From: Enterobacteria phage GEC-3S
Sequence record: HE978309
Strand: one strand, 5' to 3'
DNA length: 64,000 bases
Numbering within the stretch: position 1 is the stretch's first letter; every line of letters starts with the position of its first letter. Under the pieces are notes generated by a model. That model was not told where the DNA came from. It saw only the letters and a program-made list of their open reading frames with translations, and did no database searches. The position numbers and the translations under genes are program-made. Shown piece after piece: positions 1-61,082 of this stretch.

Positions 1-2109
1 TTAAAATTTAACATTCTTAACCAGTTTCATAAAGTCTTGTGCGCGTTTGTCATTATGCAGAATACGATACCAGTTATCTACAATATCATACAGTAACGGG
101 CTATTCTCTTTAAACTTCGCACAAACTGCTTTAATTCGTTCGTTTGCTGCCGTGAATTTTTCGTCACAGATCTTTTTAGTTTCTTCGTCCATAATCCAAC
201 GAGTACGAAGGAGTAACTTGGAAACCTCTTTATTATAATGACGACCGTACAGTCTGTCAATAAATTCTGGAATACAGCGTTCTAATTCATCGTCATGAAA
301 CAACATAGTGATCACACCCAGATATTCGCCATACCCCAGATGATTGGTCTTAACCTTCTTAGCCAGACCAGCCAGCTTACCGCGAACAAATTCTAGCGCA
401 CATTCCAATTGTTCGTCAACGAGATATTTTTGTGTCTCGTTTCGAGTAATAATATACTTTGTTACCCCGAAGTAGTCAAGCGCCGTGTGTAATGTATTTT
501 CATTATAGATCGATTGACGGCTACGGCTTTCGAATGCATCACCTACGCGGAACATGTGCAAGCCTGATAACTCGCGAATCTCTGCCGCTTTCATGTGATG
601 GCTGGTTTTATGCCAACTGTCACCAATCTTTTCCATGATATACACGTTAGGCAGCTTGGGAGTAGCTTCACGTTGTGTACGCTCGGTCTTCTCCGGCTTA
701 ACTGCTTTAGCACGCAGATCATCGGCCTCGGACACTTTAATCACGGTCATTTCAGAATCATCATAATACTGTTTGATGTACTCGAAAGTCTCCATATGTT
801 TTTCGTTGTTCTGACGGAACACCAGTACCTTTTTATTGATGCCATATTCCTGGACCATGCCGTTAAGAGTCAGTGCACGCAGTTTCGGTTTATCGGTGTC
901 ATCAATAAGACACGTAATATCTTCTTTATGCATCCATACAAAATGCGTAATGTTGTATTGACTGCTAACGAAAGCAGGGCGCAATTTGCTGATTGTGTGT
1001 CGATGATGATACAGAGTATACACCTGTCCTTCTACGTCATTTGGCGAATCTTTACCCGCATTCACAAACTTATTATAGATTGCTACCGGGTCATCCCACT
1101 GCCCGATCTTACCCATCTTGCTAATAATATTGCGTTGCGTCGATGAATACTCGCTCATAAATTGCGCAAGTTTACGCTCTGTTTCAATGCTGGCGATCTT
1201 TTCTTTAACCTTTTCCAACATCATTTCATTGATTTCTGCAATGCGTTTTTCGATGTTCGCTTTAGTCTCAATTGACAAGTGAACTTCTTCACGCGATGGC
1301 ATCAGGTCCAGATCACCCAACTCAAAATTAATGTAAATGGTCTGGTGCTGTCGGTTTACAGCTTCTAACCATGTTCCGCGAACATATTCATACGGGATCG
1401 GATACTGGATCTTGCCCATGATTGCATATACCACATAGGAATCGTTATCACGTCCATTACACACATAATAATTATCAAAGCTAGGGAAATAATTAATTTC
1501 GATTGCGTTGATATTCGGTTTATGTTCCCCAAAATGACGCAGTACAAACTGTGCTTCTCGATGCCATGTCTGAATGTCTTTTTCTTTCACCGGAATAGTG
1601 ATTTTCAGACCATTGTCTTCATAGGTCGGTTCGTCGAAAATCTGCACCATTTTCGGCATAGAGTTTTGCACGAATGCGGTAAAGCCATAAGCGCGACCAT
1701 TGTAATAGTTTACGATTGTAAAGGTGTCGGTATAGCTATAAGCAGACTTCGCACCCAAACCAAAAGACCCGATATAGTCATTAGTCTGGTCTTTTGTTGA
1801 TTCAAAGTAAACCGTAAACAGTTGTTCTAATTCTTTCTTAGACGGAATACCAGTACCATAATCACGCACAGAAAAATACGGTTCGATTGCAGTCGGTAAA
1901 TGAATATCAAACGGACGATCTAAGGTTCCGGCTTCTTTGTGAGTGTCGGTAGCATTGCACGAATACTCACGGACGCAAGCACGCTCACAATATTGATAAG
2001 TGTTCTTAGAAAGCACCATAAAAGCCTTGCTACTTGCTTTCAGTGAAAAATCAACTGCACCGCTCAGGTCACTACCAAATACTTCTTCATTATCAATATG
2101 CATTTTCAT
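1..2109 (-). CDS. rIIA: rIIA protein (GHKL/Bergerat-fold ATPase-like)
   Basis: 702-aa ORF, ATG with SD GAGGA; N-terminal motifs RDYGTGIP and GSFGLGAKS; sits directly before gp39 as in T4. Confidence 0.8.
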   Translation of the reverse strand: MKMHIDNEEVFGSDLSGAVDFSLKASSKAFMVLSKNTYQYCERACVREYSCNATDTHKEAGTLDRPFDIHLPTAIEPYFSVRDYGTGIPSKKELEQLFTVYFESTKDQTNDYIGSFGLGAKSAYSYTDTFTIVNYYNGRAYGFTAFVQNSMPKMVQIFDEPTYEDNGLKITIPVKEKDIQTWHREAQFVLRHFGEHKPNINAIEINYFPSFDNYYVCNGRDNDSYVVYAIMGKIQYPIPYEYVRGTWLEAVNRQHQTIYINFELGDLDLMPSREEVHLSIETKANIEKRIAEINEMMLEKVKEKIASIETERKLAQFMSEYSSTQRNIISKMGKIGQWDDPVAIYNKFVNAGKDSPNDVEGQVYTLYHHRHTISKLRPAFVSSQYNITHFVWMHKEDITCLIDDTDKPKLRALTLNGMVQEYGINKKVLVFRQNNEKHMETFEYIKQYYDDSEMTVIKVSEADDLRAKAVKPEKTERTQREATPKLPNVYIMEKIGDSWHKTSHHMKAAEIRELSGLHMFRVGDAFESRSRQSIYNENTLHTALDYFGVTKYIITRNETQKYLVDEQLECALEFVRGKLAGLAKKVKTNHLGYGEYLGVITMLFHDDELERCIPEFIDRLYGRHYNKEVSKLLLRTRWIMDEETKKICDEKFTAANERIKAVCAKFKENSPLLYDIVDNWYRILHNDKRAQDFMKLVKNVKF

Positions 2110-2123
2110 AATATAATCCTCAC

Positions 2124-2381
2124 TTAATTAAAATCTTCTTTGTCCATCTCTGCGTAGATTACATCCCACGCCCATAAATCAATAAACGCATTATATGTCA
2201 CGGTGCAATCGTTGTCAATCACTTCTTTCGCATATTTCTTGATGTTTTCGTAGGAAACTTGCGGATCAATTTTGTGTTTACGAAGGTGCGCATATTCATA
2301 TCTCAGACATTTCATAAACAGGTCCATCGATTTCTTTTCTCGATGGTACTTGGCGAACATAAAATCAAAACTTCTATTCAT
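2124..2381 (-). CDS. hypothetical protein (85 aa)
   Basis: ATG preceded by AAGGAG; position of T4 rIIA.1-type small genes. Confidence 0.5.
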   Translation of the reverse strand: MNRSFDFMFAKYHREKKSMDLFMKCLRYEYAHLRKHKIDPQVSYENIKKYAKEVIDNDCTVTYNAFIDLWAWDVIYAEMDKEDFN

Positions 2382-5303: not shown

Positions 5304-5972
5304 TTATCCCCTTTGTTTCTTAACTGAATTTGGATCTGGATTTTCTGGCAAGTCTTCCAGACCCATAGCATAACGTTGTGCATAGATTAGCATAAGAATA
5401 TCGCGAGCGCAATCATGAATTGCATCATGCGCGATAAATCCGTCTAGCGTACCCATTGGTAACGGGCATTCACACATACCACGATGCATCAATGTACGCT
5501 CAATGGCGGTGCGAACGTCTCGGATGTTCCAGAATCGCACAGGTTCAAGATTGAACGTCTCACGGGTATTGTGTGCGCGGCGGATCATATCAACTAGTAA
5601 CGGAATATCAAACGCATTACCGCGTGACCACATTACTGATTTAACCGGATCTACTCCTACGGATTCACAGAATGCGTTAAAACGCGCTAAACCTTCTTTA
5701 GTTGATACTTCCGTACCATTTGTGATTAATTGCTTTCTCATGCCTTCTGAGGCGGTATTCTTCCACCATTCAACCACACCATGATCAAACACCCTTACAC
5801 CTTTCTGGGAAGGAATATCAAATTTTACCAGAAAGGAATTGTCAACCAGTTCTTTAAATGTAGGTGGGTTGTGCGGATCTTCTTTAAATCCGATTGCCGC
5901 CATATTGATAACCGCCCCATCAGGCGGATAACCTAAACTTTCAAAGTCAATCATTAAATCCACTGGAAGCAT
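5304..5972 (-). CDS. dexA: exonuclease A (DEDDh 3'-5' exonuclease)
   Basis: 222 aa from ATG 5972 with SD GGAGGA; Exo I motif IDFES and Exo III motif HDAIHD; between gp39 and dda as in T4. Confidence 0.8.
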   Translation of the reverse strand: MLPVDLMIDFESLGYPPDGAVINMAAIGFKEDPHNPPTFKELVDNSFLVKFDIPSQKGVRVFDHGVVEWWKNTASEGMRKQLITNGTEVSTKEGLARFNAFCESVGVDPVKSVMWSRGNAFDIPLLVDMIRRAHNTRETFNLEPVRFWNIRDVRTAIERTLMHRGMCECPLPMGTLDGFIAHDAIHDCARDILMLIYAQRYAMGLEDLPENPDPNSVKKQRG

Positions 5973-5973
5973 T

Positions 5974-6216
5974 TTAAATATCCTCCGCGATATGTCGGAA
6001 CAACTCCAGATCGTTTTTATCCAGAATGAAACCGCTACAATCAATAATCCCGTTACCGTAATTATCGGTTAACAGTCGTTCCGTTGCCATGTATGCGCGT
6101 ACTTTGTTGTTAAAATTCATTACATGTTGTGCATAGTCACAATGAATCTTTTGACGCTTCCACGCGACAATTGATTGTAGATGTATTACATTAGCAATAT
6201 TATTAATAACAACCAT
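5974..6216 (-). CDS. hypothetical protein (80 aa)
   Basis: ATG 6216 (MVVINN...) with SD GAGG; stop abuts dexA start. Confidence 0.5.
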   Translation of the reverse strand: MVVINNIANVIHLQSIVAWKRQKIHCDYAQHVMNFNNKVRAYMATERLLTDNYGNGIIDCSGFILDKNDLELFRHIAEDI

Positions 6217-6217
6217 A

Positions 6218-6394
6218 TCAAAAACCTCGCTTAGTGAAATGTTCTGGCATTTTATTGATACATACAGCTTGGTAGTCACGAGATTTTTTTGACGAATTAA
6301 GAGCTACGGCCAAAAAATCCTGTAACTGTTCGTTTGTCATTTTTGGCTTACACCGCGTATCTAAACTCTTCGTTCTTCTAGCTTCATTAGCCAT
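6218..6394 (-). CDS. hypothetical small protein (58 aa), tandem paralog
   Basis: hand-read; C-terminus AVCINKMPEHFTKRGF; stop-T-ATG junction with next gene. Confidence 0.4.
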   Translation of the reverse strand: MANEARRTKSLDTRCKPKMTNEQLQDFLAVALNSSKKSRDYQAVCINKMPEHFTKRGF

Positions 6395-6395
6395 A

Positions 6396-6563
6396 TCAAA
6401 AACCTCGCTTAGTGAAATGCTCGATCATTTTATTGATACATGCAGCTTCACTATCGCCGGACACGTTCCAGCCGTATAGACCCCATCTAAAGCACATGGT
6501 AACAGTTCCATTGTGACGGCTTACCGTCACATCATTAAATTCTGGGATACTTCGCATAATCAT
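6396..6563 (-). CDS. hypothetical small protein (55 aa), tandem paralog
   Basis: hand-read; SD GAGGAA; C-terminus AACINKMIEHFTKRGF nearly identical to the neighbour. Confidence 0.4.
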   Translation of the reverse strand: MIMRSIPEFNDVTVSRHNGTVTMCFRWGLYGWNVSGDSEAACINKMIEHFTKRGF

Positions 6564-6573
6564 AATAATTTCC

Positions 6574-7965
6574 TCAAATATAGTCTACTCGATACCGCGC
6601 ACGGGTAACACCAACATATAATAACTGCATTGCCAATTCAAAGTCAACATTATCTGTACACATGCAAGGAGTATACAGGAACACGCGGTCTACGCTGATC
6701 CCTTGTGACTTATGAATAGTGCAAGCTGGTAATGCTTTTACATTCAAGAACATACGTTTCATAGTCCAGAAAGAGTCCCAATCTGGTTTAAATTTTGGAT
6801 TCTCTTTCTTCATTTCGCGATATTGTCCGGCGACCGTATTCAGATAGATAGAGAAAATGTTCTTCTGACGTTGTTCTGTCAGAATGTTGATTTCTACTAA
6901 ATCTGGTTTATCTGTAGTGATTCCGACTGCATCTAAACCGACTTTCTGATTTAGGATTTCTTTGTCTTCGTCATCATCGACGCTTTCCACTTTCAGAGTA
7001 TAGCCTAAAACTGGTTGCGGATCTACCCCCGTGCAACGTAATGTAAATTCACGCGGGATGACCTCTTTAACTCGGATCATCTCACCATTGTTAAAAATAA
7101 CATTGGGAATCTTCTTCCCGCGTTCATCTCGCATATATTCGATCAACGGTTCCTGAGTAACCAGAATTTCATCTACAATCACTGGTTCATCGGTGTTATA
7201 AACGCGCTTGCGCACAATTTCATTGAGTTTTTCGACGCTCTTGTTAGTGTAAGCCAGAATACGGTTTTCTAGAAGGTCTTCCGGCGTTTTAACGGTTTCG
7301 AAATAATGTTTCATAAACTCCGGCAGAGTTGAGCTATGGAATACACCCTCGTTACCGCACTGCTTTTCGAATACCCATTTACCGTTACGGACAGCGGTCG
7401 CCACATCAATGATCGGTGCATTAGATCGTTTAATTTCTGTCAACTCCACGTTTTGAAAATTTTCATCCGTGAAGAAAGGAGAAATTGACGTTGCACCGCT
7501 CGGATCAACTGGTCGTAACTGGTGCGGATCGCCAACTGCAATAACAACAATTCGACCGTTGATACTCTTCATGAGAATATCAAATAACTTCTTATCGACC
7601 ATACTCGCTTCATCAACAATGATGATCTGAACATCATCTAGCTTAGGAGTATCTTTTTGTTCAAATACTTGAGTATCTTCATAGTTGGTCGGGTTTAGTC
7701 GCAGTAGTGCATGTAAAGTAAATGCTTGACGACCTACCGCTTTACTCAAAACTTTTTTAGCCTGGTGGGTAGGCGTTGCCAAAACCACACCAGTTACACC
7801 ACGGCGGACCATTTCCTGAACAATGAATTTCATCATTGCGGTTTTACCAGTACCCGCCGCACCCCGGACAGTTGTATGCTTCTTTTGTTCAATGCGTTTC
7901 ATTAGAACATCAAAAGCATGTTTTTGCCCGTCTGTTAACATATCGAAAGTTAATACTCTGCTCAT
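6574..7965 (-). CDS. dda: Dda DNA helicase (SF1)
   Basis: 463 aa; Walker A GAAGTGKT, Walker B IIVDEASM; T4 synteny. Confidence 0.85.
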   Translation of the reverse strand: MSRVLTFDMLTDGQKHAFDVLMKRIEQKKHTTVRGAAGTGKTAMMKFIVQEMVRRGVTGVVLATPTHQAKKVLSKAVGRQAFTLHALLRLNPTNYEDTQVFEQKDTPKLDDVQIIIVDEASMVDKKLFDILMKSINGRIVVIAVGDPHQLRPVDPSGATSISPFFTDENFQNVELTEIKRSNAPIIDVATAVRNGKWVFEKQCGNEGVFHSSTLPEFMKHYFETVKTPEDLLENRILAYTNKSVEKLNEIVRKRVYNTDEPVIVDEILVTQEPLIEYMRDERGKKIPNVIFNNGEMIRVKEVIPREFTLRCTGVDPQPVLGYTLKVESVDDDEDKEILNQKVGLDAVGITTDKPDLVEINILTEQRQKNIFSIYLNTVAGQYREMKKENPKFKPDWDSFWTMKRMFLNVKALPACTIHKSQGISVDRVFLYTPCMCTDNVDFELAMQLLYVGVTRARYRVDYI

Positions 7966-29182: not shown

Positions 29183-29469
29183 TAGAAACCCTTACGTCGT
29201 GCTTTCTGGCATTTCTTGATCATTTTATCAGAAATTTCGCGCTTAGGTGCAATCTCTTTCACACCGAAAGCACTAATGCCAAATTCAGAGAGAATGTATT
29301 CAACCAACAATTCACGCACACGCGCTTTACCGATATTCACGCCGTTATTTTTCAGATATGTCTGGCCTTCGACTTGCATCAGATCTAAATCTGCGTCGGT
29401 AATATTGATTTCTTCCATGCGCCCAAATCGAGAATAAACCATGTGTGCGATTGCATTGTGTACTAACAT
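29182..29469 (-). CDS. hypothetical protein (95 aa)
   Basis: ATG 29469 with SD GAGGAA; stop overlaps start of the NTPase. Confidence 0.5.
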   Translation of the reverse strand: MLVHNAIAHMVYSRFGRMEEINITDADLDLMQVEGQTYLKNNGVNIGKARVRELLVEYILSEFGISAFGVKEIAPKREISDKMIKKCQKARRKGF

Positions 29470-29490
29470 AATATATTCCTCACTCAAGAA

Positions 29491-30382: not shown

Positions 30383-31207
30383 TTACCAACCTCGCTCTTT
30401 ACCAATCAAAAATTCAACTTCACGACGTTTAATGTCTTCTTGAAGGTCTTTAATCTTCTGGCGATCTTGCATGATTTCATCCATCTTGTCAAGTGCCGCA
30501 ATGAAATCATCGAAACGTTCAAAGGTTTTACCTTCATTTGCTTCGCCAAATTTAACCATTGTCAGGCCGTAACGACTACTAAACAGACGTTTCAACTGTC
30601 CAACGATTTTAGAATCAGTGGTTATAACTTCCAATTCTTCTACTTCACGAAAGAATTTTCTATCAGAATCAATAAACCAGCTAGTTCCTTTATGGTTACT
30701 ATCTTCGGTTGCACTCATTAGAGTATGGTCTTTACCATCAATTTCAATTACATCAATTTGCCCACATGGACGAACATTTTTAACAGTAAAAGGTCTATAA
30801 TTTATTGCTCGTGCAATAACATAATTAAGATTAGATACGTTTTCAGCATAATGACAGAAGTCGGTCATAGCCTTATCATCTTTCCAAGTATAAGTTTTAC
30901 CAACTTCCCATTTCTGGGGAACTTCTTCAACTTCACGAAAGAATTTTCTATCAAATGGACTAAAGAAATATGTTGCAGTCCAAATGTCTTTTCCTGTAGC
31001 AGTTTTCGCCGTATGATAAACACCGTCTAGCTCTATTGCATCAATCCAACCGTTACCCTCGATCTCGATGATGGTAAATGGCTTGTCACCAATAGCTGCA
31101 CTAATATCGCTGTTAAGTGGAGAAAGAACACCTTCTCCGTTAGTAATAAACTCAGTTTTAGCGTTTACATCTTTCCAAGTGTAAGTTTTACCAATTTCCC
31201 ATTTCAT
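30383..31207 (-). CDS. paralog family A protein with internal tandem duplication (274 aa)
   Basis: ATG with SD AAGGGGA; two copies of W-E-x-GKTYTWKD ... DRKFFREVEE module. Confidence 0.55.
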   Translation of the reverse strand: MKWEIGKTYTWKDVNAKTEFITNGEGVLSPLNSDISAAIGDKPFTIIEIEGNGWIDAIELDGVYHTAKTATGKDIWTATYFFSPFDRKFFREVEEVPQKWEVGKTYTWKDDKAMTDFCHYAENVSNLNYVIARAINYRPFTVKNVRPCGQIDVIEIDGKDHTLMSATEDSNHKGTSWFIDSDRKFFREVEELEVITTDSKIVGQLKRLFSSRYGLTMVKFGEANEGKTFERFDDFIAALDKMDEIMQDRQKIKDLQEDIKRREVEFLIGKERGW

Positions 31208-31219
31208 AATATATTCCCC

Positions 31220-31705
31220 TTAACCGATTTTATCAAGTTCGTTTAATGCTTTCTCAGCTTCCTGTATAGCTTGCACTCTTTCCGGCATTTTGTCAAGAAA
31301 ATCTTTCAACTCTTCAAAACTGGAGATATGACGCAAGGCATTAGCACCGATAGCCGCATGTGATTTGCATTCAAAGCGAATTTTATAATTATCCATAGCC
31401 AATTTGAGAAGGTCTATTAGATCATATTCACGACCAGGCAATAAAACTTCTTTGAAGCACGCTCGGTCGCCATCGGAAAACCATATATTATCACCAACAT
31501 CGATAGAACTAATATAATCCCCTTCGTGATTATAGATTGAACGTACATTACCCCAACGGTCTACAGTAGCGACAGTAAATGGTTTATCTAGATATGTAAA
31601 CACACCATCAATATTAGGTTTTTGTTCGTAACGCCAACAATCACGCAAAATACGCTTTTCGTACTCACCAACCAACTTATATGTCTTCCCTTCTTCCCAT
31701 TTCAT
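31220..31705 (-). CDS. paralog family A protein (161 aa)
   Basis: start chosen at ATG 31705 (MKWEEGKTY...). Confidence 0.5.
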   Translation of the reverse strand: MKWEEGKTYKLVGEYEKRILRDCWRYEQKPNIDGVFTYLDKPFTVATVDRWGNVRSIYNHEGDYISSIDVGDNIWFSDGDRACFKEVLLPGREYDLIDLLKLAMDNYKIRFECKSHAAIGANALRHISSFEELKDFLDKMPERVQAIQEAEKALNELDKIG

Positions 31706-31709
31706 AATA

Positions 31710-32237
31710 TCATCTCTCATTTTTGATACGTGATTCTAATTGGATCATACGGTCGCGCGTTTGCTTATATTCTCGGATATCACCGATCCGGCTAGGCATA
31801 CCATCCAGTACGCTCTTAATCCCTTCTAGGGTAGTGATTTTAGCAATACTATTATGCAATCCCATCTTATCGATTAACTGAATGTCGTAGGCTTCCATAA
31901 GCAGACCCAGACGTTCTAAAGTTAGGTCTTCTTCTTTTTCTTCCGATTCTGGAATCTTAGGTTCAATAGTAACTTCGGTAAAGAAACGACGCTCGCCCGA
32001 CCAAAACCACACACCGGAACAGCCAATAGGGGATTCTTTTAACGTCATAGAGTCGTAACCACTGCCGATAATAGTAATTTCTCTAACATCACCATCATCG
32101 TCAATGTCTTCTACCCTAAACGGGCGACCAGCCAACAGGTCAACAATACATCTGTTAATAGACGACGAAAATTTAGTCAGTTCGGCTTTCGACGCTTCGC
32201 ATTCAATCTTGTAAGTTTTACCAACTTCCCATTCCAT
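31710..32237 (-). CDS. paralog family A protein (175 aa)
   Basis: start at ATG 32237 (MEWEVGKTY...) with SD GAGGTGA. Confidence 0.5.
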   Translation of the reverse strand: MEWEVGKTYKIECEASKAELTKFSSSINRCIVDLLAGRPFRVEDIDDDGDVREITIIGSGYDSMTLKESPIGCSGVWFWSGERRFFTEVTIEPKIPESEEKEEDLTLERLGLLMEAYDIQLIDKMGLHNSIAKITTLEGIKSVLDGMPSRIGDIREYKQTRDRMIQLESRIKNER

Positions 32238-32247
32238 AATAATCACC

Positions 32248-36623: not shown

Positions 36624-37798
36624 GCACTAACTTTTTTCTTTACTGCTTTCACCTTCTGGCGAATTGCTCGAATCTCTTCGATCTCTTTTTCAGTATCTTT
36701 AACAATTTCTTTGCGATTCTGAATATCTTTATCGAGATTATCATCAAGTTTAGGCAGCATGTCAATCAAGAACTTTTTAAGGTCTTTCAGGTTGCGAATA
36801 ACAGTACCTTCACCCATTACCGCCACGCCTACACCATCCGGCAGATCACCAAACAGTTTAACCAGTTCAGACAGATGATCATGATCTTCTAGTGCTTCTT
36901 CCGGTTCAGATGGCAGTTCAACAAAGTAATAACGTTCATCATTGCTGATCAGGTGATACCAGCAAAGCCCAAAAGATTTAGGAGTATATTCTACACCACC
37001 AACTTCAACTGCGTCAACACTTCCGAAAGAATCTACTTTAGTTACCTTAAATCCATGTTCCAGCGTTTTAATAATTTCAATAACATGACTGGATACGGTT
37101 TCAGTATTAAACCAATGAGGCAAATTATGTGGATTTGGCTTGTATCGTTCGCCTACTTTAAATCTCTGACCACGCTCTTGCATACGGACATATTCAACTC
37201 GCGTGATTTCCGCGAAGTATTCAAATTCGCTACCGTCAAACAAGCAATTCCATTGATCACAAAAACGATCCGCCTTGACGGTTTCACCTTTCGCGGTGAT
37301 CATGGTAGCTGATCCGTGCAATTCTTCTTCAACTAAAAAGCCATATTCTACAAAATCAACAAGTTTCATGGCTTCTTTGTGCTCTGGGTCATGCTCTCCC
37401 CAGAATCGCTTAAATTCTTGCAAACCTTCTGGGGTAAACGAATAACATTTACCTTTTTCAAAGTAAGTCGGCATTGCATCCTCTTTCTTGTTCATCGCTT
37501 CGTATGCCTCTTTTGAGATACGTTTAAAGTATTTGCGCTCATTGTGCATAATCATAGTAGCCCAATAATAAACGATATCCTCAGCGGAATAAACTACATC
37601 TCCAGCTTCAATAGTAATAACATGACCGTTGTCATCTTTTTCTAATACTTTAAAGCCCTTTTCTACGATTTCAGCAACCCGAATATGACCACGGCGCGAA
37701 GCATCGGTCAGAATAATTGAATAGCGAGAAAAGTCTAGAAACTCATCTTTACCACCTTCACGGAATGCATAGTAATGACCTTCAAAGAATTTAGCCAT
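36620..37798 (-). CDS. paralog family B protein (392 aa, multi-module)
   Basis: ATG with SD; repeated GFKVL...ERKYFKRI-type modules. Confidence 0.55.
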   Translation of the reverse strand: MAKFFEGHYYAFREGGKDEFLDFSRYSIILTDASRRGHIRVAEIVEKGFKVLEKDDNGHVITIEAGDVVYSAEDIVYYWATMIMHNERKYFKRISKEAYEAMNKKEDAMPTYFEKGKCYSFTPEGLQEFKRFWGEHDPEHKEAMKLVDFVEYGFLVEEELHGSATMITAKGETVKADRFCDQWNCLFDGSEFEYFAEITRVEYVRMQERGQRFKVGERYKPNPHNLPHWFNTETVSSHVIEIIKTLEHGFKVTKVDSFGSVDAVEVGGVEYTPKSFGLCWYHLISNDERYYFVELPSEPEEALEDHDHLSELVKLFGDLPDGVGVAVMGEGTVIRNLKDLKKFLIDMLPKLDDNLDKDIQNRKEIVKDTEKEIEEIRAIRQKVKAVKKKVSA

Positions 37799-43327: not shown

Positions 43328-43369
43328 TTTGATTCTCCTTAAGAAAGTGTGTTTCGTTTTGATGTGTTT

Positions 43370-43398
43370 AGTATAGGGGATACGTGATCCCCTGTCAA
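43370..43398 (-). promoter_or_regulatory. early promoter (TTGACA-N17-TATACT); spacer palindrome GGGGAT-ACGTG-ATCCCC
   Basis: minus-strand read. Confidence 0.5.
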
Positions 43399-43414
43399 CA
43401 ACTTTTTTATGATT

Positions 43415-43735
43415 TTAGTGAATTAACTCTACACCAAAATGAGGCACAGAGAACGCCTTACGAAACACATATTCATCATGTTTAGGAATCGCCCCTAACC
43501 GCTCTATTTCGCTCGCTGACACGATAAACCGCTTATCTGGTGCATTTACCTTATATGCTTCAACAACGCACGGAAAACGCGTTTTATCGAGTTCTGGATA
43601 GTTTTCCGAATCCATCAGGACAATGAATACCCTATTACATTGATTGTAGAATCCTGTTTTTGATTTCATCAAGTTTTCTTCTATGTTCAAGTCGTGCAAT
43701 CTTCTTTTCATGATTTCGTTGGTTCTTGTCTTCAC
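43415..43735 (-). CDS. hypothetical protein (start uncertain)
   Basis: overlaps the upstream ORF by about 100 nt in another frame; could be a shorter gene or a frameshifted continuation. Confidence 0.3.
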   Translation of the reverse strand: MKTRTNEIMKRRLHDLNIEENLMKSKTGFYNQCNRVFIVLMDSENYPELDKTRFPCVVEAYKVNAPDKRFIVSASEIERLGAIPKHDEYVFRKAFSVPHFGVELIH

Positions 43736-43973: not shown

Positions 43974-44230
43974 CACAGTTTCCTCAACCAGTTATTAAAG
44001 CTAGCAAACCATGATGCTTTTCGTGCTTCTTTGACTTTATGTGCACGTAAACCACTGAAACACCATTCATAATCATCACTGAAACATGATTCAACAGGAA
44101 CACCCGCATTTCGTAGTTCTCTGGTCGTTATCATGAATCCTTGACATAATGGGCGACCTTCAACAATGATAGGAAGTTTAACTTTTTCCATGAAAGTATA
44201 CCCAGCACGGTCAATAATTTCAATCTTCAT
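43973..44230 (-). CDS. paralog family C protein (85 aa)
   Basis: MKIEIIDRAGYTFM...; ATG with SD GAGGATTATATT. Confidence 0.5.
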   Translation of the reverse strand: MKIEIIDRAGYTFMEKVKLPIIVEGRPLCQGFMITTRELRNAGVPVESCFSDDYEWCFSGLRAHKVKEARKASWFASFNNWLRKL

Positions 44231-44248
44231 AATATAATCCTCAATTAG

Positions 44249-44446
44249 TTATACCGCCCAGGCTTCATTTGCACGAAAACACCATTCATATTCAGGAAAA
44301 TAACCTTTAATTGGTACGCCAGCTTTTTGTAGTTCCTGCGTTTCTACAAGATAATCAAGCCCATAACGACGACCTTCCACGATGATCGGAAGTTTAACGC
44401 CATTCATGAAAGAAAATCCACCGTCATCAATAATTTCAATTTTCAT
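44249..44446 (-). CDS. paralog family C protein (65 aa)
   Basis: MKIEIIDDGGFSFM...; SD GGAGA. Confidence 0.5.
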   Translation of the reverse strand: MKIEIIDDGGFSFMNGVKLPIIVEGRRYGLDYLVETQELQKAGVPIKGYFPEYEWCFRANEAWAV

Positions 44447-45131: not shown

Positions 45132-45329
45132 TCACTCTTCTGTTTCATTTCTTTTATATGGTACTATAACAGGATTAATACAGCAAGCACCAATTACGTT
45201 ATGAGCACCACAATTTAAGCATTTATAATCATGGAACTTATTAAGGAATCGACCAAACTCATAACCGACTAGCGCCGCTTGTACTTGAGTCTCGATCTCA
45301 TCCATATCAGCCAATGTTTTAACCTTCAT
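45132..45329 (-). CDS. hypothetical Cys-rich protein (65 aa)
   Basis: ATG with SD GAGGATTATACT; CLNCG...CC motif. Confidence 0.45.
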   Translation of the reverse strand: MKVKTLADMDEIETQVQAALVGYEFGRFLNKFHDYKCLNCGAHNVIGACCINPVIVPYKRNETEE

Positions 45330-45339
45330 AGTATAATCC

Positions 45340-45624
45340 TCAAATGGTAGTTTTGCGAAGATGGTCGTTACATGCTTTTAATGCATCAGTCGCGGTGTCA
45401 TAGCGAGTATTATCATAGCACCAGTAACCATCTGTCAACTGATAAATCAATCCATCTTTTTTAGCTTCGATGAAAGATAACTCTTTGAAAGTTTCTACTT
45501 TCTTTGCTGATACTCCACGGCGTTTATAGAGTTTAGCTAAAATGCGTTCAGCTTGTTCCTCTTTATCACCAGACAGATCCCAGATGATGTTTCGGATATG
45601 CTTGATTAATTGTTCAGTGGTCAT
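45340..45624 (-). CDS. hypothetical protein (94 aa)
   Basis: ATG with leader AAGGAGAATCAAAG. Confidence 0.5.
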   Translation of the reverse strand: MTTEQLIKHIRNIIWDLSGDKEEQAERILAKLYKRRGVSAKKVETFKELSFIEAKKDGLIYQLTDGYWCYDNTRYDTATDALKACNDHLRKTTI

Positions 45625-46781: not shown

Positions 46782-46822
46782 TTTTGATTCTCCTAGAAAG
46801 TGTATCTCGTTTCGATGTGTGT

Positions 46823-46851
46823 ATTATGCAATAACACCGGAACGCTGTCAA
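46823..46851 (-). promoter_or_regulatory. early promoter (TTGACA-N17-CATAAT)
   Basis: followed by leader ACACACATCGAAACGAG. Confidence 0.5.
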
Positions 46852-46869
46852 CACTTTCTAAGAAAAATT

Positions 46870-47154
46870 TTAAACTAATCGAATGTAACCCAAAATTTCA
46901 GCACTTTTAGCCAGATCTAAAATTTCCCATTCAAGATCGCCGTAGTCATAATTTGCAACCATCAACTGACCATTTTTCATGCAGCAATCATGAGAGAAAA
47001 TTTGCCCCGCATAAACTACGATAGTGATAAACTTTCCTGATTCTGGCGGTGTGGAAGACAAAGCGACCATATGACCATTCAGCTTAGTCACCAGTGATGG
47101 AACAATAAAATTCGGGCTTACCTTAATACCGTTAAATTCGTTTGTGTCTTTCAT
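46870..47154 (-). CDS. hypothetical protein (94 aa)
   Basis: ATGA overlap. Confidence 0.45.
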   Translation of the reverse strand: MKDTNEFNGIKVSPNFIVPSLVTKLNGHMVALSSTPPESGKFITIVVYAGQIFSHDCCMKNGQLMVANYDYGDLEWEILDLAKSAEILGYIRLV

Positions 47155-56829: not shown

Positions 56830-57088
56830 TTTCACAGAATGAAATTTTCACAGACACAATTTTACCATAAGTGAAGAATGAATATACATTATCGAGATAT
56901 TCAACGTCACCTACAATCACATCAAACTGCGGATCAGCCACTGCCGCAACATATTCTACCAGTTCATCAAGAGAATGCAACTTAATTTCATCAATTCGGC
57001 TGTATTTGGTTGCATCTTTGATTTTAAAACCACGTTCTTTCAGCTTATCAATTAGAATTTCACGCGGAGTTTCAAACAGTTTGCTCAT
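56768..57088 (-). CDS. hypothetical protein (106 aa)
   Basis: ATG with SD GTGAGGATTATATT. Confidence 0.45.
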   Translation of the reverse strand: MSKLFETPREILIDKLKERGFKIKDATKYSRIDEIKLHSLDELVEYVAAVADPQFDVIVGDVEYLDNVYSFFTYGKIVSVKISFCENVEVLASEPEKPTDNGPSAA

Positions 57089-57109
57089 AATATAATCCTC
57101 ACATTAAAT

Positions 57110-58023: not shown

Positions 58024-58065
58024 TTTGATACTCCTTAGTAGTTCGTGTTTCGTTTCGATGGGTGT

Positions 58066-58094
58066 ATTATGCTATACACCCTCTCGCGTGTCAA
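58066..58094 (-). promoter_or_regulatory. early promoter (TTGACA-N17-CATAAT) inside GGGTGTAT/ATACACCC palindrome
   Basis: followed by leader CATCGAAACGAAACAC. Confidence 0.55.
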
Positions 58095-58102
58095 CAACTT
58101 TT

Positions 58103-58291
58103 TTAGTCTTTTTTCATAATTTCTAGAGCAGTTTCTACAGCACCTTTCCAACCCTCCCACATAATGGACATAGTAATGAAGTTAAAGCACCCGCAGGAAT
58201 CAACCTTTTTAGAGATAAACCATTCTACAAACGCTTCGCTCATACCATGCTCTTTAGCGGATTCGCGTAATTGTTCAATTTGGTCTTCCAT
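58103..58291 (-). CDS. hypothetical protein (62 aa)
   Basis: SD GAGGTGA. Confidence 0.45.
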   Translation of the reverse strand: MEDQIEQLRESAKEHGMSEAFVEWFISKKVDSCGCFNFITMSIMWEGWKGAVETALEIMKKD

Positions 58292-58981: not shown

Positions 58982-59027
58982 AATTTGATTCTCCGTTTAA
59001 GAAAGTGTGTTTCGTTTCGATGGGTGT

Positions 59028-59056
59028 ATTATGCTATAGGCCGGATCTGGTGTCAA
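59028..59056 (-). promoter_or_regulatory. early promoter (TTGACA-N17-CATAAT)
   Basis: directly downstream of terminator 59090-59107. Confidence 0.5.
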
Positions 59057-59089
59057 CAACTTTTTTAAAAAATTTTAGGCAATAAAAAA

Positions 59090-60980: not shown

Positions 60981-61017
60981 TTTGATTCTCCTAAGTGTGT
61001 TTCGTTTCGATATGTGC

Positions 61018-61046
61018 ATTATTCTATAGTCGTTTATGGTTGTCAA
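61018..61046 (-). promoter_or_regulatory. early promoter (TTGACA-N17-AATAAT)
   Basis: directly downstream of terminator 61064-61082. Confidence 0.45.
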
Positions 61047-61063
61047 CACCTAAAAACAAAAAA

Positions 61064-61082
61064 CCCCGAAAAATTTTCGGGG
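61064..61082 (-). terminator. intrinsic terminator
   Basis: CCCCGAA-AAUUU-UUCGGGG + UUUUUUGUUUUU on minus strand. Confidence 0.6.

Follow-up and report, generated by a model that had tools for sequence, protein, structure and literature searches.

How did two small neighbouring genes of a T4-like phage come to end in almost the same 17 codons? The question is raised by a locus between dda and dexA in the 64,000 nucleotides (nt) of Enterobacteria phage GEC-3S analysed here (sequence record HE978309; the whole of this stretch is called the window), where the open reading frames (ORFs) ORF010 (6396–6563, minus strand, 55 amino acids (aa)) and ORF009.1 (6218–6394, minus strand, 58 aa) follow each other in the sense of transcription. 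An earlier note on this DNA, made from the letters alone, had interpreted the locus as the recent local duplication of a small gene that keeps its coupling to the downstream neighbour. The explanation that we consider best, with a probability of about 0.75 for the explanation as a whole, is that the duplicated element is the gene junction itself, consisting of the tail of ORF010, the stop codon and the start signals of the next gene, and that the two resulting junctions stand on either side of the body of an optional mini-gene, ORF009.1.

The direct repeat occupies 6213–6270 and 6391–6448, with 53 of its 58 nt identical (91%) at a spacing of 178, so that the ~58-bp, ~90% repeat of the earlier note is borne out. 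It forms the sole repeat family in 5900–6700 and, as family D12, is the most similar direct repeat of at least 30 nt in the whole window, where its first 28 nt occur exactly twice against an expectation of 0 from 100 shuffles. The reading frames originally proposed were also correct, the repeat being the shared 3' coding end of two adjacent ORFs that are annotated in phage Phi1 as ORF010 and ORF009.1. Read on the minus strand, each copy encodes ...[E/Q]A[A/V]CINKM[I/P]EHFTKRGF, followed by TGA, T, ATG and G. Copy 1, the upstream one in the sense of transcription (6391–6448, minus strand), carries the last 17 ORF010 codons (EAACINKMIEHFTKRGF) and the TGA stop at 6396–6398, then a 1-nt spacer and the ATG plus first G of ORF009.1 at 6391–6394, with a Shine–Dalgarno (SD) sequence GAGG at 6403–6406. 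Copy 2, the downstream one (6213–6270, minus strand), has the same arrangement with the last 17 codons of ORF009.1 (QAVCINKMPEHFTKRGF), TGA at 6218–6220, a 1-nt spacer, the ATG plus first G of ORF009 at 6213–6216, and GAGG at 6225–6228. The repeat does not end at the stop: it also covers the SD of the next gene, 8 nt ahead of the start codon, and its ATG plus one G.

The TGA-T-ATG sequence noticed earlier at these junctions is present after both copies, and a stop-N-ATG layout is the local norm: the nine junctions from srd to gene 39 all range from −8 to +10 nt, and four consecutive ones in this run have 1-nt spacers. Both copies display the geometry of a coupled pair, with TGA-T-ATG and an SD within the upstream ORF, and the same design is found at all nine junctions. 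Because each copy supplies SD, spacing and ATG, translational coupling at both junctions is a fair reading of the sequence. Several natural early-stop alleles of ORF009.1 leave the downstream SD in place, and no SD-sequestering structure was predicted. Another conserved start context, GAGGATTATATTATG, is near-identical in many minus-strand genes of the window (2090–2130, 29455–29490, 44211–44251, 45317–45348, 50838–50878 and 57069–57100; families D4, D8 and D11) and is a translation-initiation motif of the phage, unlike the GAGGTTTTTGATATG of the repeat.

If the whole gene had been duplicated in tandem, ORF010 and ORF009.1 would be paralogues whose N-terminal parts diverged, perhaps via frameshifts, while the 3' end was homogenised by gene conversion, a process that does occur. 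Their adjacency, similar size and identical orientation agree with this. What they share, however, is only the last ~17 codons, the stop, the SD and the next ATG, and the N-terminal ~40 codons are unrelated. BLASTP aligns residues 31–58 of ORF009.1 with residues 28–55 of ORF010 and nothing else, and the N-terminal ~40 residues compare below shuffled controls (p = 0.8). Each protein has a full-length match to its own PHROG family (ORF009.1 to PHROG 37371, 3.2e-46 over 1–58/58; ORF010 to PHROG 16162, 4.5e-44 over 1–55/55) and matches the profile of the other over the last 21 positions only. In-register DNA identity drops from 53/58 in the repeat to 10–12/18 just upstream, where in-frame similarity runs on for a few codons (S.D..A) as a duplication would allow, and then to 4–7/18 beyond ~18 nt upstream. 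The unique parts of the two genes do give a gapped local DNA match at similar positions (score 14, ~60 nt; p = 0.01 against shuffles and p = 0.02–0.03 against random same-strand segments of the window), but the matched blocks lie in different reading frames. A degenerate third copy of the repeat at the dda/ORF010 junction was not found, the alignment score of 7 being equal to background, and the N-terminal part of ORF009.1, read in its own frame, has homologues in other phage families, where ORF010 has none. Whole-gene duplication is thus distinctly unlikely.

The comparison with known paralogues leads in the same direction. The tandem paralogous small-gene families of T4-like phages are likewise adjacent, same-strand, tightly packed early genes that share sequence, but paralogues are expected to be homologous over most of the gene, whereas here the shared sequence is confined to ~17 codons and the junction. 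Probable true tandem paralogues are present elsewhere in the window, at 44154–44230/44370–44446, within 30635–32242 (D6, D9 and D15) and at 37491–37543/38120–38172. These direct repeats measure 42–77 nt, with 77–86% identity and a spacing of 216–630 nt, and at least some of them cover the 5' ends of adjacent small minus-strand genes, unlike the 58-nt repeat.

The part of ORF009.1 that is not shared with ORF010 has its own relatives, to which a weak tblastn match to small ORFs of N4-like coliphages and the jumbo phage TH47 gave the starting lead. A profile of 31 module-bearing N4-like proteins matches residues 6–37 of ORF009.1 with E = 5.5e-9, the runner-up among 1313 six-frame ORFs of the window having 0.61, and matches TH47 with 2.6e-8. 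The alignment is restricted to profile positions 16–47, i.e. to a module of ~30 aa. Conversely, PHROG 37371 is matched by an N4-like protein (3.2e-5) and by the TH47 ORF (2.4e-5) at profile positions 6–37 only, and ORF010 has no match to module-bearing proteins of other phage families. In ORF009.1, the module spans codons 6–37 (6284–6379, minus strand; RRTKSLDTRCKPKMTNEQLQDFLAVALNSSKK) and consists of a basic stretch followed by KPxMTNEQLQxFIxxALxxSK. It is a portable peptide that N4-like, Asteriusvirus and Serratia phages also have in some of their small proteins, and a library-wide profile search found it at varied positions in proteins of 31–131 aa. It stands in the middle of 31 of the 120 listed proteins of the N4 gp6 family. 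In 22 Asteriusvirus records, it makes up an ORF of 38 aa by itself, and beside N4 gp1/gp2 homologues one of 49 aa. It is further found at the C-terminal end of a 99-aa protein of Serratia phage 4S whose N-terminal part looks like a putative helix-turn-helix, and at the N-terminal end of a 131-aa protein. The module homology at residues 6–37, taken with the ORF010-like tail, argues firmly that ORF009.1 is a chimera, with codons 1 to ~41 derived from the module family and the last ~17 codons a copy of the ORF010 tail.

Membership in the N4 gp6 family (PHROG 7648; early small proteins of Schitoviridae) would be another way to classify ORF009.1, as the module-bearing subset of that family is similar in size and its ...CIK* end aligns with CINK. 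ORF009.1 is, however, without the family's N-terminus MRKSLIMGTKEDV and C-terminus IVTFNHP(C)I and has no match to PHROG 7648, and therefore shares the module without being a family member. N4 gp6 itself (L043:31–189) is without the module, and a literature search on N4 gp6 returned nothing evidently about that protein. Within the family (P0012–P0131), the conserved ends MRKSLIMGTKEDV... and ...IVTFNHPCIK surround a hypervariable middle that is swapped among several unrelated segments, the MTNEQLQ module being one of them, and the module appears to be mobile inside this family too. No Pfam domain was found in ORF009.1 or ORF010, and an AlphaFold model of ORF009.1 (13-sequence alignment) contains two helices at a low confidence that is too weak for a fold search (mean predicted local distance difference test score 65.7, predicted template modelling score 0.31). 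Our guess is that the protein may be an early, dispensable host-interaction peptide.

That ORF009.1 is optional can be seen among the relatives of GEC-3S. A 2.7-kb query around the repeat matched 57 records of a phage collection, all from Krischvirus or close relatives, which places the window in this genus of T4-like coliphages (RB49/Phi1/JSE group, Straboviridae). The closest record is Phi1, with 98.1% identity and identical coordinates. ORF010 is present in every genome examined, and the 178-bp unit with ORF009.1 in 16 of the 57 GenBank Krischvirus records. The 16 carriers align in one 2701-bp piece and the other records span 2523 bp in two pieces; in JSE, there is one copy of the repeat and the unique part is absent, an exact 178-bp difference. 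The unique 124 nt match only these 16 carriers at the DNA level in the phage database and give only chance matches of 10–19 nt elsewhere in the window. All copies of ORF009.1 that were found sit at the same locus, including those from all seven metagenomic look-ups, and a search of 5.8 billion proteins identified both mini-proteins as Krischvirus-confined ORFans (8 clusters for ORF009.1 and 3 for ORF010).

The distribution of the unit also bears on its age. In neighbour-joining trees of the left flank (dda and the ORF010 body) and the right flank (ORF009 and dexA), which disagree with each other, carriers and non-carriers are interleaved on both sides, e.g. the carrier 011D4 with the non-carriers E26 and PHB13, the carrier pEJ01 with the non-carrier Whisky, and the carriers ECD7 and kvi with the non-carrier RB49. 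The unit is found in the most divergent Krischvirus lineages sampled (Makalu, L010 and L038), and the synonymous diversity (pS) of the unique part of ORF009.1 (0.10) equals that of the flanking genes dda (0.12) and dexA (0.10). Because divergent lineages carry the unit, its pS is that of dda and dexA, and carriers interleave with non-carriers, the sequences indicate for it an age similar to that of the sampled genus, frequent loss or exchange, and reshuffling among Krischviruses through recombination in the flanks. The copy number in related phages and these estimates speak against the part of the earlier note that called the duplication recent. One ORF010 variant (P0011, 49 aa with a different tail) was dropped, as its contig L009 continues halfway through the repeat with unrelated sequence of higher G+C content and is a probable chimera of metagenome assembly. 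Its break (L009:2615 onward; ENA ERZ27296280 k119_185182) lies inside repeat copy 1, exactly at ...GTGAAGC, the 5' edge of the repeat.

Several genomes preserve products of recombination between the two copies. In the non-carrier PHB13, the ORF010 body is followed by a tail that agrees at every position from AAGCTGAATG on with copy 2 of the closely related 011D4. An A5 frameshift is part of this match, and therefore the proteins of PHB13 and 011D4 both end in CINKNARTFH*; together with E26, the two phages form a cluster on both flank trees. PHB13 is accordingly best read as the natural scar of an exact 178-bp deletion by recombination of copy with copy, with the crossover at the 5' edge of the repeat. 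A second kind of product is seen in Makalu, whose copy 2 has ATC-GAA-TAT as in its own copy 1. TAT is found in copy 2 of no other genome, and all other copy 2 sequences have CCA, ACA or TCA, then GAA or GAT, then CAT, a pattern that argues strongly for copy-to-copy gene conversion. In the divergent L038, the unique part is only 102/119 identical to the window, but no more than two substitutions and one indel set its copy 2 apart from its copy 1 in the 54 nt of coding tail. A GGT/GGG polymorphism is common to both copies of the repeat. Taken together, the sequences point clearly to the two copies as substrates for homologous recombination. Recombination in T4 reportedly needs roughly 50 bp of homology. 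With 58 nt at ~91% identity, the repeat is near the length for efficient recombination in the T4 system, and a 178-bp deletion and homogenisation are the expected products. The mechanism would therefore be ordinary, and what is unusual is the content of the repeat.

Although the tail is nearly the same in both genes, it does not evolve in the same way. As the end of ORF010, it has 6 synonymous and 3 nonsynonymous variant codons (30 genomes), and as the end of ORF009.1, 1 synonymous and 11 nonsynonymous ones (17 in-frame copies), a contrast with a Fisher p of 0.016. From these counts, the shared tail appears to be conserved within ORF010 and drifting within ORF009.1. Of 31 genomes, 30 have an intact ORF010 of 55 aa and one, the PHB13 recombinant, does not. 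For ORF009.1, the 58-aa frame is kept in 13 of the 21 tabulated carrier sequences (the window and 20 loci), and eight disruptive alleles were found: T5, T7, A6, A8, A5 and A3 (both in the repeat), the combination A6+A5, and a TGA>TGT read-through. The main frameshift site is the A7 homopolymer in codons S35-K36-K37 (6284–6290, minus strand), which is A6 in Makalu, L034, L035 and L038 and A8 in ECD7. The second is a T6 homopolymer (6312–6317, minus strand), with T5 in pEJ01 and T7 in L031 and L032, and the A4 run in copy 2 (6250–6253, minus strand) is A3 or A5 in some relatives. At least five of the alleles lose the tail. Several disruptive alleles turn up again in metagenome assemblies made independently, so that sequencing errors do not account for all of them. 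The ratio of nonsynonymous to synonymous diversity (pN/pS) is 0.05 for dda and dexA, 0.15 for ORF009, 0.24 for ORF010 and 0.41 for ORF009.1. ORF009.1 thus looks like a dispensable accessory gene, and its borrowed tail like a passenger, while copy 2 would still provide ORF009 with its SD and start codon. The A7 run reads A AAA AAA in frame (6284–6290), and the −1 frame entered there ends 11 codons on at a TGA in the repeat, which would give a 48–49-aa product like that of the Makalu allele. A search for a stimulatory structure found none, and genomes differ in the length of the run, making this weak evidence for a programmed frameshift.

A functional reason for keeping the repeat twice could be a peptide domain that both proteins need, or an RNA structure, terminator or regulatory site. 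The first version can draw on the 13 of 21 carrier sequences with an intact frame, on the double frameshift that restores it and on the allele that reads through the stop. It is contradicted by the 1:11 ratio of synonymous to nonsynonymous changes in the ORF009.1 tail and by the alleles that lose the tail altogether, and the identity of the copies spans synonymous sites and the non-coding junction, which points to copying at the DNA level. With regard to RNA structure, the RNA at copy 1 folds to a hairpin of −21.4 kcal/mol (z = −2.1), but copy 2 is without it (z = +0.8), and neither 58-nt core has a folding advantage over shuffled sequences (z = +0.9 and +1.4). Compensatory changes or covariation were looked for and none were seen, and there is no Rfam match to the repeat. 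Neither copy contains a promoter-like or terminator-like site, and the region has 8 promoter-like sites compared to 7.2 expected by chance. A functional element of either type is therefore very improbable. The hairpin (6400–6445, minus-strand RNA) is imperfect, with 17 pairs (UAGUGAAGCUGCAUGUAUCA...UGAUCGAGCAUUUCACUA), includes a few bases upstream of the repeat and is followed 3 nt later by U5. One promoter-like site, TTGACT-18-TATTAT (10/12), is located at 6618–6647 on the minus strand, in the end of dda and ~55 nt upstream of ORF010, in a region where the number of such sites is at chance level.

In the explanation that we prefer, the body of the mini-gene would have been joined by recombination into the ORF010/ORF009 junction, leaving the junction on both sides. 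By entering there, the new gene would have gained a stop codon, and ORF009 would have kept its SD and start. The joining may have taken place at a microhomology between the end of the donor gene and the ORF010 tail, in the first third of the repeat (...CINK). An N4-like gene ends in CCATGTATCAAATAG, with CATGTATCAA in common with the repeat, and joining at CATGTATCAA would fit, although the position of CINK allows the reverse history equally. In that history, the repeat was native to an ORF009.1-type gene, which ended in ...QAACINK* and was followed by a 30-nt spacer with an SD, and was acquired by ORF010; a slip of one base, with A3 becoming A4, would then have made the spacer coding, as the tail MIEHFTKRGF of both genes. 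A model of such an ancestor is seen in L038, where the A3 allele gives CINK* and then a normal-looking spacer with an SD, and the shared CATGTATCAA as well as the I-x-K*/CIK* ends of the module family suit this direction too. The L038 allele is, however, most simply another homopolymer slip in a copy that is almost identical to its own copy 1. Furthermore, ORF010 with the tail is found in every genome and ORF009.1 alone in none, and purifying selection acts on the tail of ORF010 but not on that of ORF009.1. Because ORF010 is ubiquitous and its tail is under selection, a tail native to ORF010 is favoured on the sequence evidence, and the reverse direction seems unlikely. As a side possibility, the last 10 codons of both genes may be a former intergenic spacer that became coding through a one-base slip.

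Several points weigh against a duplicated junction around a foreign mini-gene body, or against the direction that we favour. A DNA-level search of the phage database gave no donor for the unique ~120 nt, and the insertion event is therefore inferred rather than observed. With regard to direction, the module-family proteins end in ...CIK* or ...ISK* exactly 12 residues past the SK of the module, where CINK lies in ORF009.1, and the 48-aa frame of Makalu scores 37.5 bits against the N4-like profile, compared to 32.9. The weak DNA similarity between the unique parts of ORF009.1 and ORF010, which we judged not significant, leaves a small chance of an old whole-gene duplication. Some of the homopolymer variants in GenBank may be sequencing errors, and the A6+A5 double change, which restores the frame of ORF009.1 through to the junction, may reflect a degree of selection on the tail, or on terminating at this position.

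Repeat-flanked accessory genes have been described before in this phage group, as the promoter-early stem-loop (PeSL) cassettes and mini-circles of RB49 and phi1 (Arbiol et al. 2010, PMC2839356; Comeau et al. 2014, PMC4122927). In these, single ORFans, different from one close genome to the next, lie between short direct repeats that are conserved, and recombination of the copies was proposed to excise or insert the ORFan. PeSLs combine a strong sigma-70-like early promoter (TTGACA-17 nt-TATAAT) with an adjacent G+C-rich stem-loop terminator and are located in intergenic, hyperplastic regions (Arbiol et al. 2010, PMC2839356). ORFan009.1 is given as one of seven phi1-specific genes that lie outside the hyperplastic regions, and the text makes no mention of a repeat flanking it (Arbiol et al. 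2010, PMC2839356). Both the flanking repeat and the chimeric build of the gene appear not to have been described previously. The locus analysed here resembles the PeSL system in its phage group, its flanking repeats and the gain and loss of a single ORFan, and in this case the excision product exists as a natural isolate, PHB13. In contrast to PeSLs, the 58-nt repeat has no promoter or terminator and consists of coding and translation-initiation sequence, is located away from the hyperplastic regions, gives the inserted gene a chimeric protein product, and forms the separate two-copy family D12, apart from the PeSL-like families D1–D3, D5 and D7. The PeSL-like families of the window are 47–69 nt long and have minus-strand TTGACA...TATAAT-like boxes and short palindromes, with copies including 2786–2854 (the nearest to the ORF009.1 locus), 43352–43420, 46805–46873, 48047–48113, 58048–58116, 59010–59078 and 61000–61066.

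The repeat lies within a closely packed minus-strand run, whose gene order in the sense of transcription is srd, ORF012, dda, ORF010, ORF009.1, ORF009, dexA, 39.2, 006.1 and 39. The flanking genes dda (6574–7965, minus strand) and dexA (5304–5972, minus strand) are as annotated in Phi1, and ORF009 (5974–6216, minus strand, 80 aa, PHROG 15021) has its SD and start codon inside repeat copy 2. Minor variation was noticed in relatives: ORF009 of phage Cognac (L029) is one codon longer (246 nt), and the dexA annotation of phage E26 (L023) is 18 nt shorter. In the metagenome contig SRR23924984_20827 (L036:2873–3177), a single Krischvirus relative, a gene of the homing-endonuclease type with HNH_3 and AP2 domains follows 39.2 and occupies the place that ORF006.1 and gene 39 have in the window.

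The kind of event described here, repeat-mediated gain and loss of an accessory phage gene, is ordinary, and no major view of phage biology is changed by it. What is unusual is that the repeat is a coding junction, that the cargo is chimeric and that the products are preserved. The locus thus offers a clean natural case of a packed phage operon that gains or loses a gene while its neighbours stay unbroken, with the gene junction itself as the repeat, and all stages (carrier, deletion scar, converted copies and decaying alleles) are extant in sequenced isolates. It widens the idea of repeat-mediated shuffling in T4-like phages from promoter and terminator cassettes to coding and translation-initiation sequence, and indicates that chimeric proteins can arise in this way, with a borrowed tail on which selection does not act. 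The module common to Krischvirus, N4-like, jumbo and Serratia phages is a candidate for functional study. By analogy with the role of PeSLs for transcription signals, one could go further and propose, as a doubtful but conceivable extension, that a coding junction cassette of last codons, stop, SD and start serves T4-like phages as a recombination adaptor. Its cargo here would be the ~30-aa module, whose movement between small proteins in four or more phage lineages would suggest a portable peptide that targets the host. If true, such an adaptor would let the body of a foreign mini-gene move in and out in frame, while every gene of the early operon would keep its ribosome-binding site.

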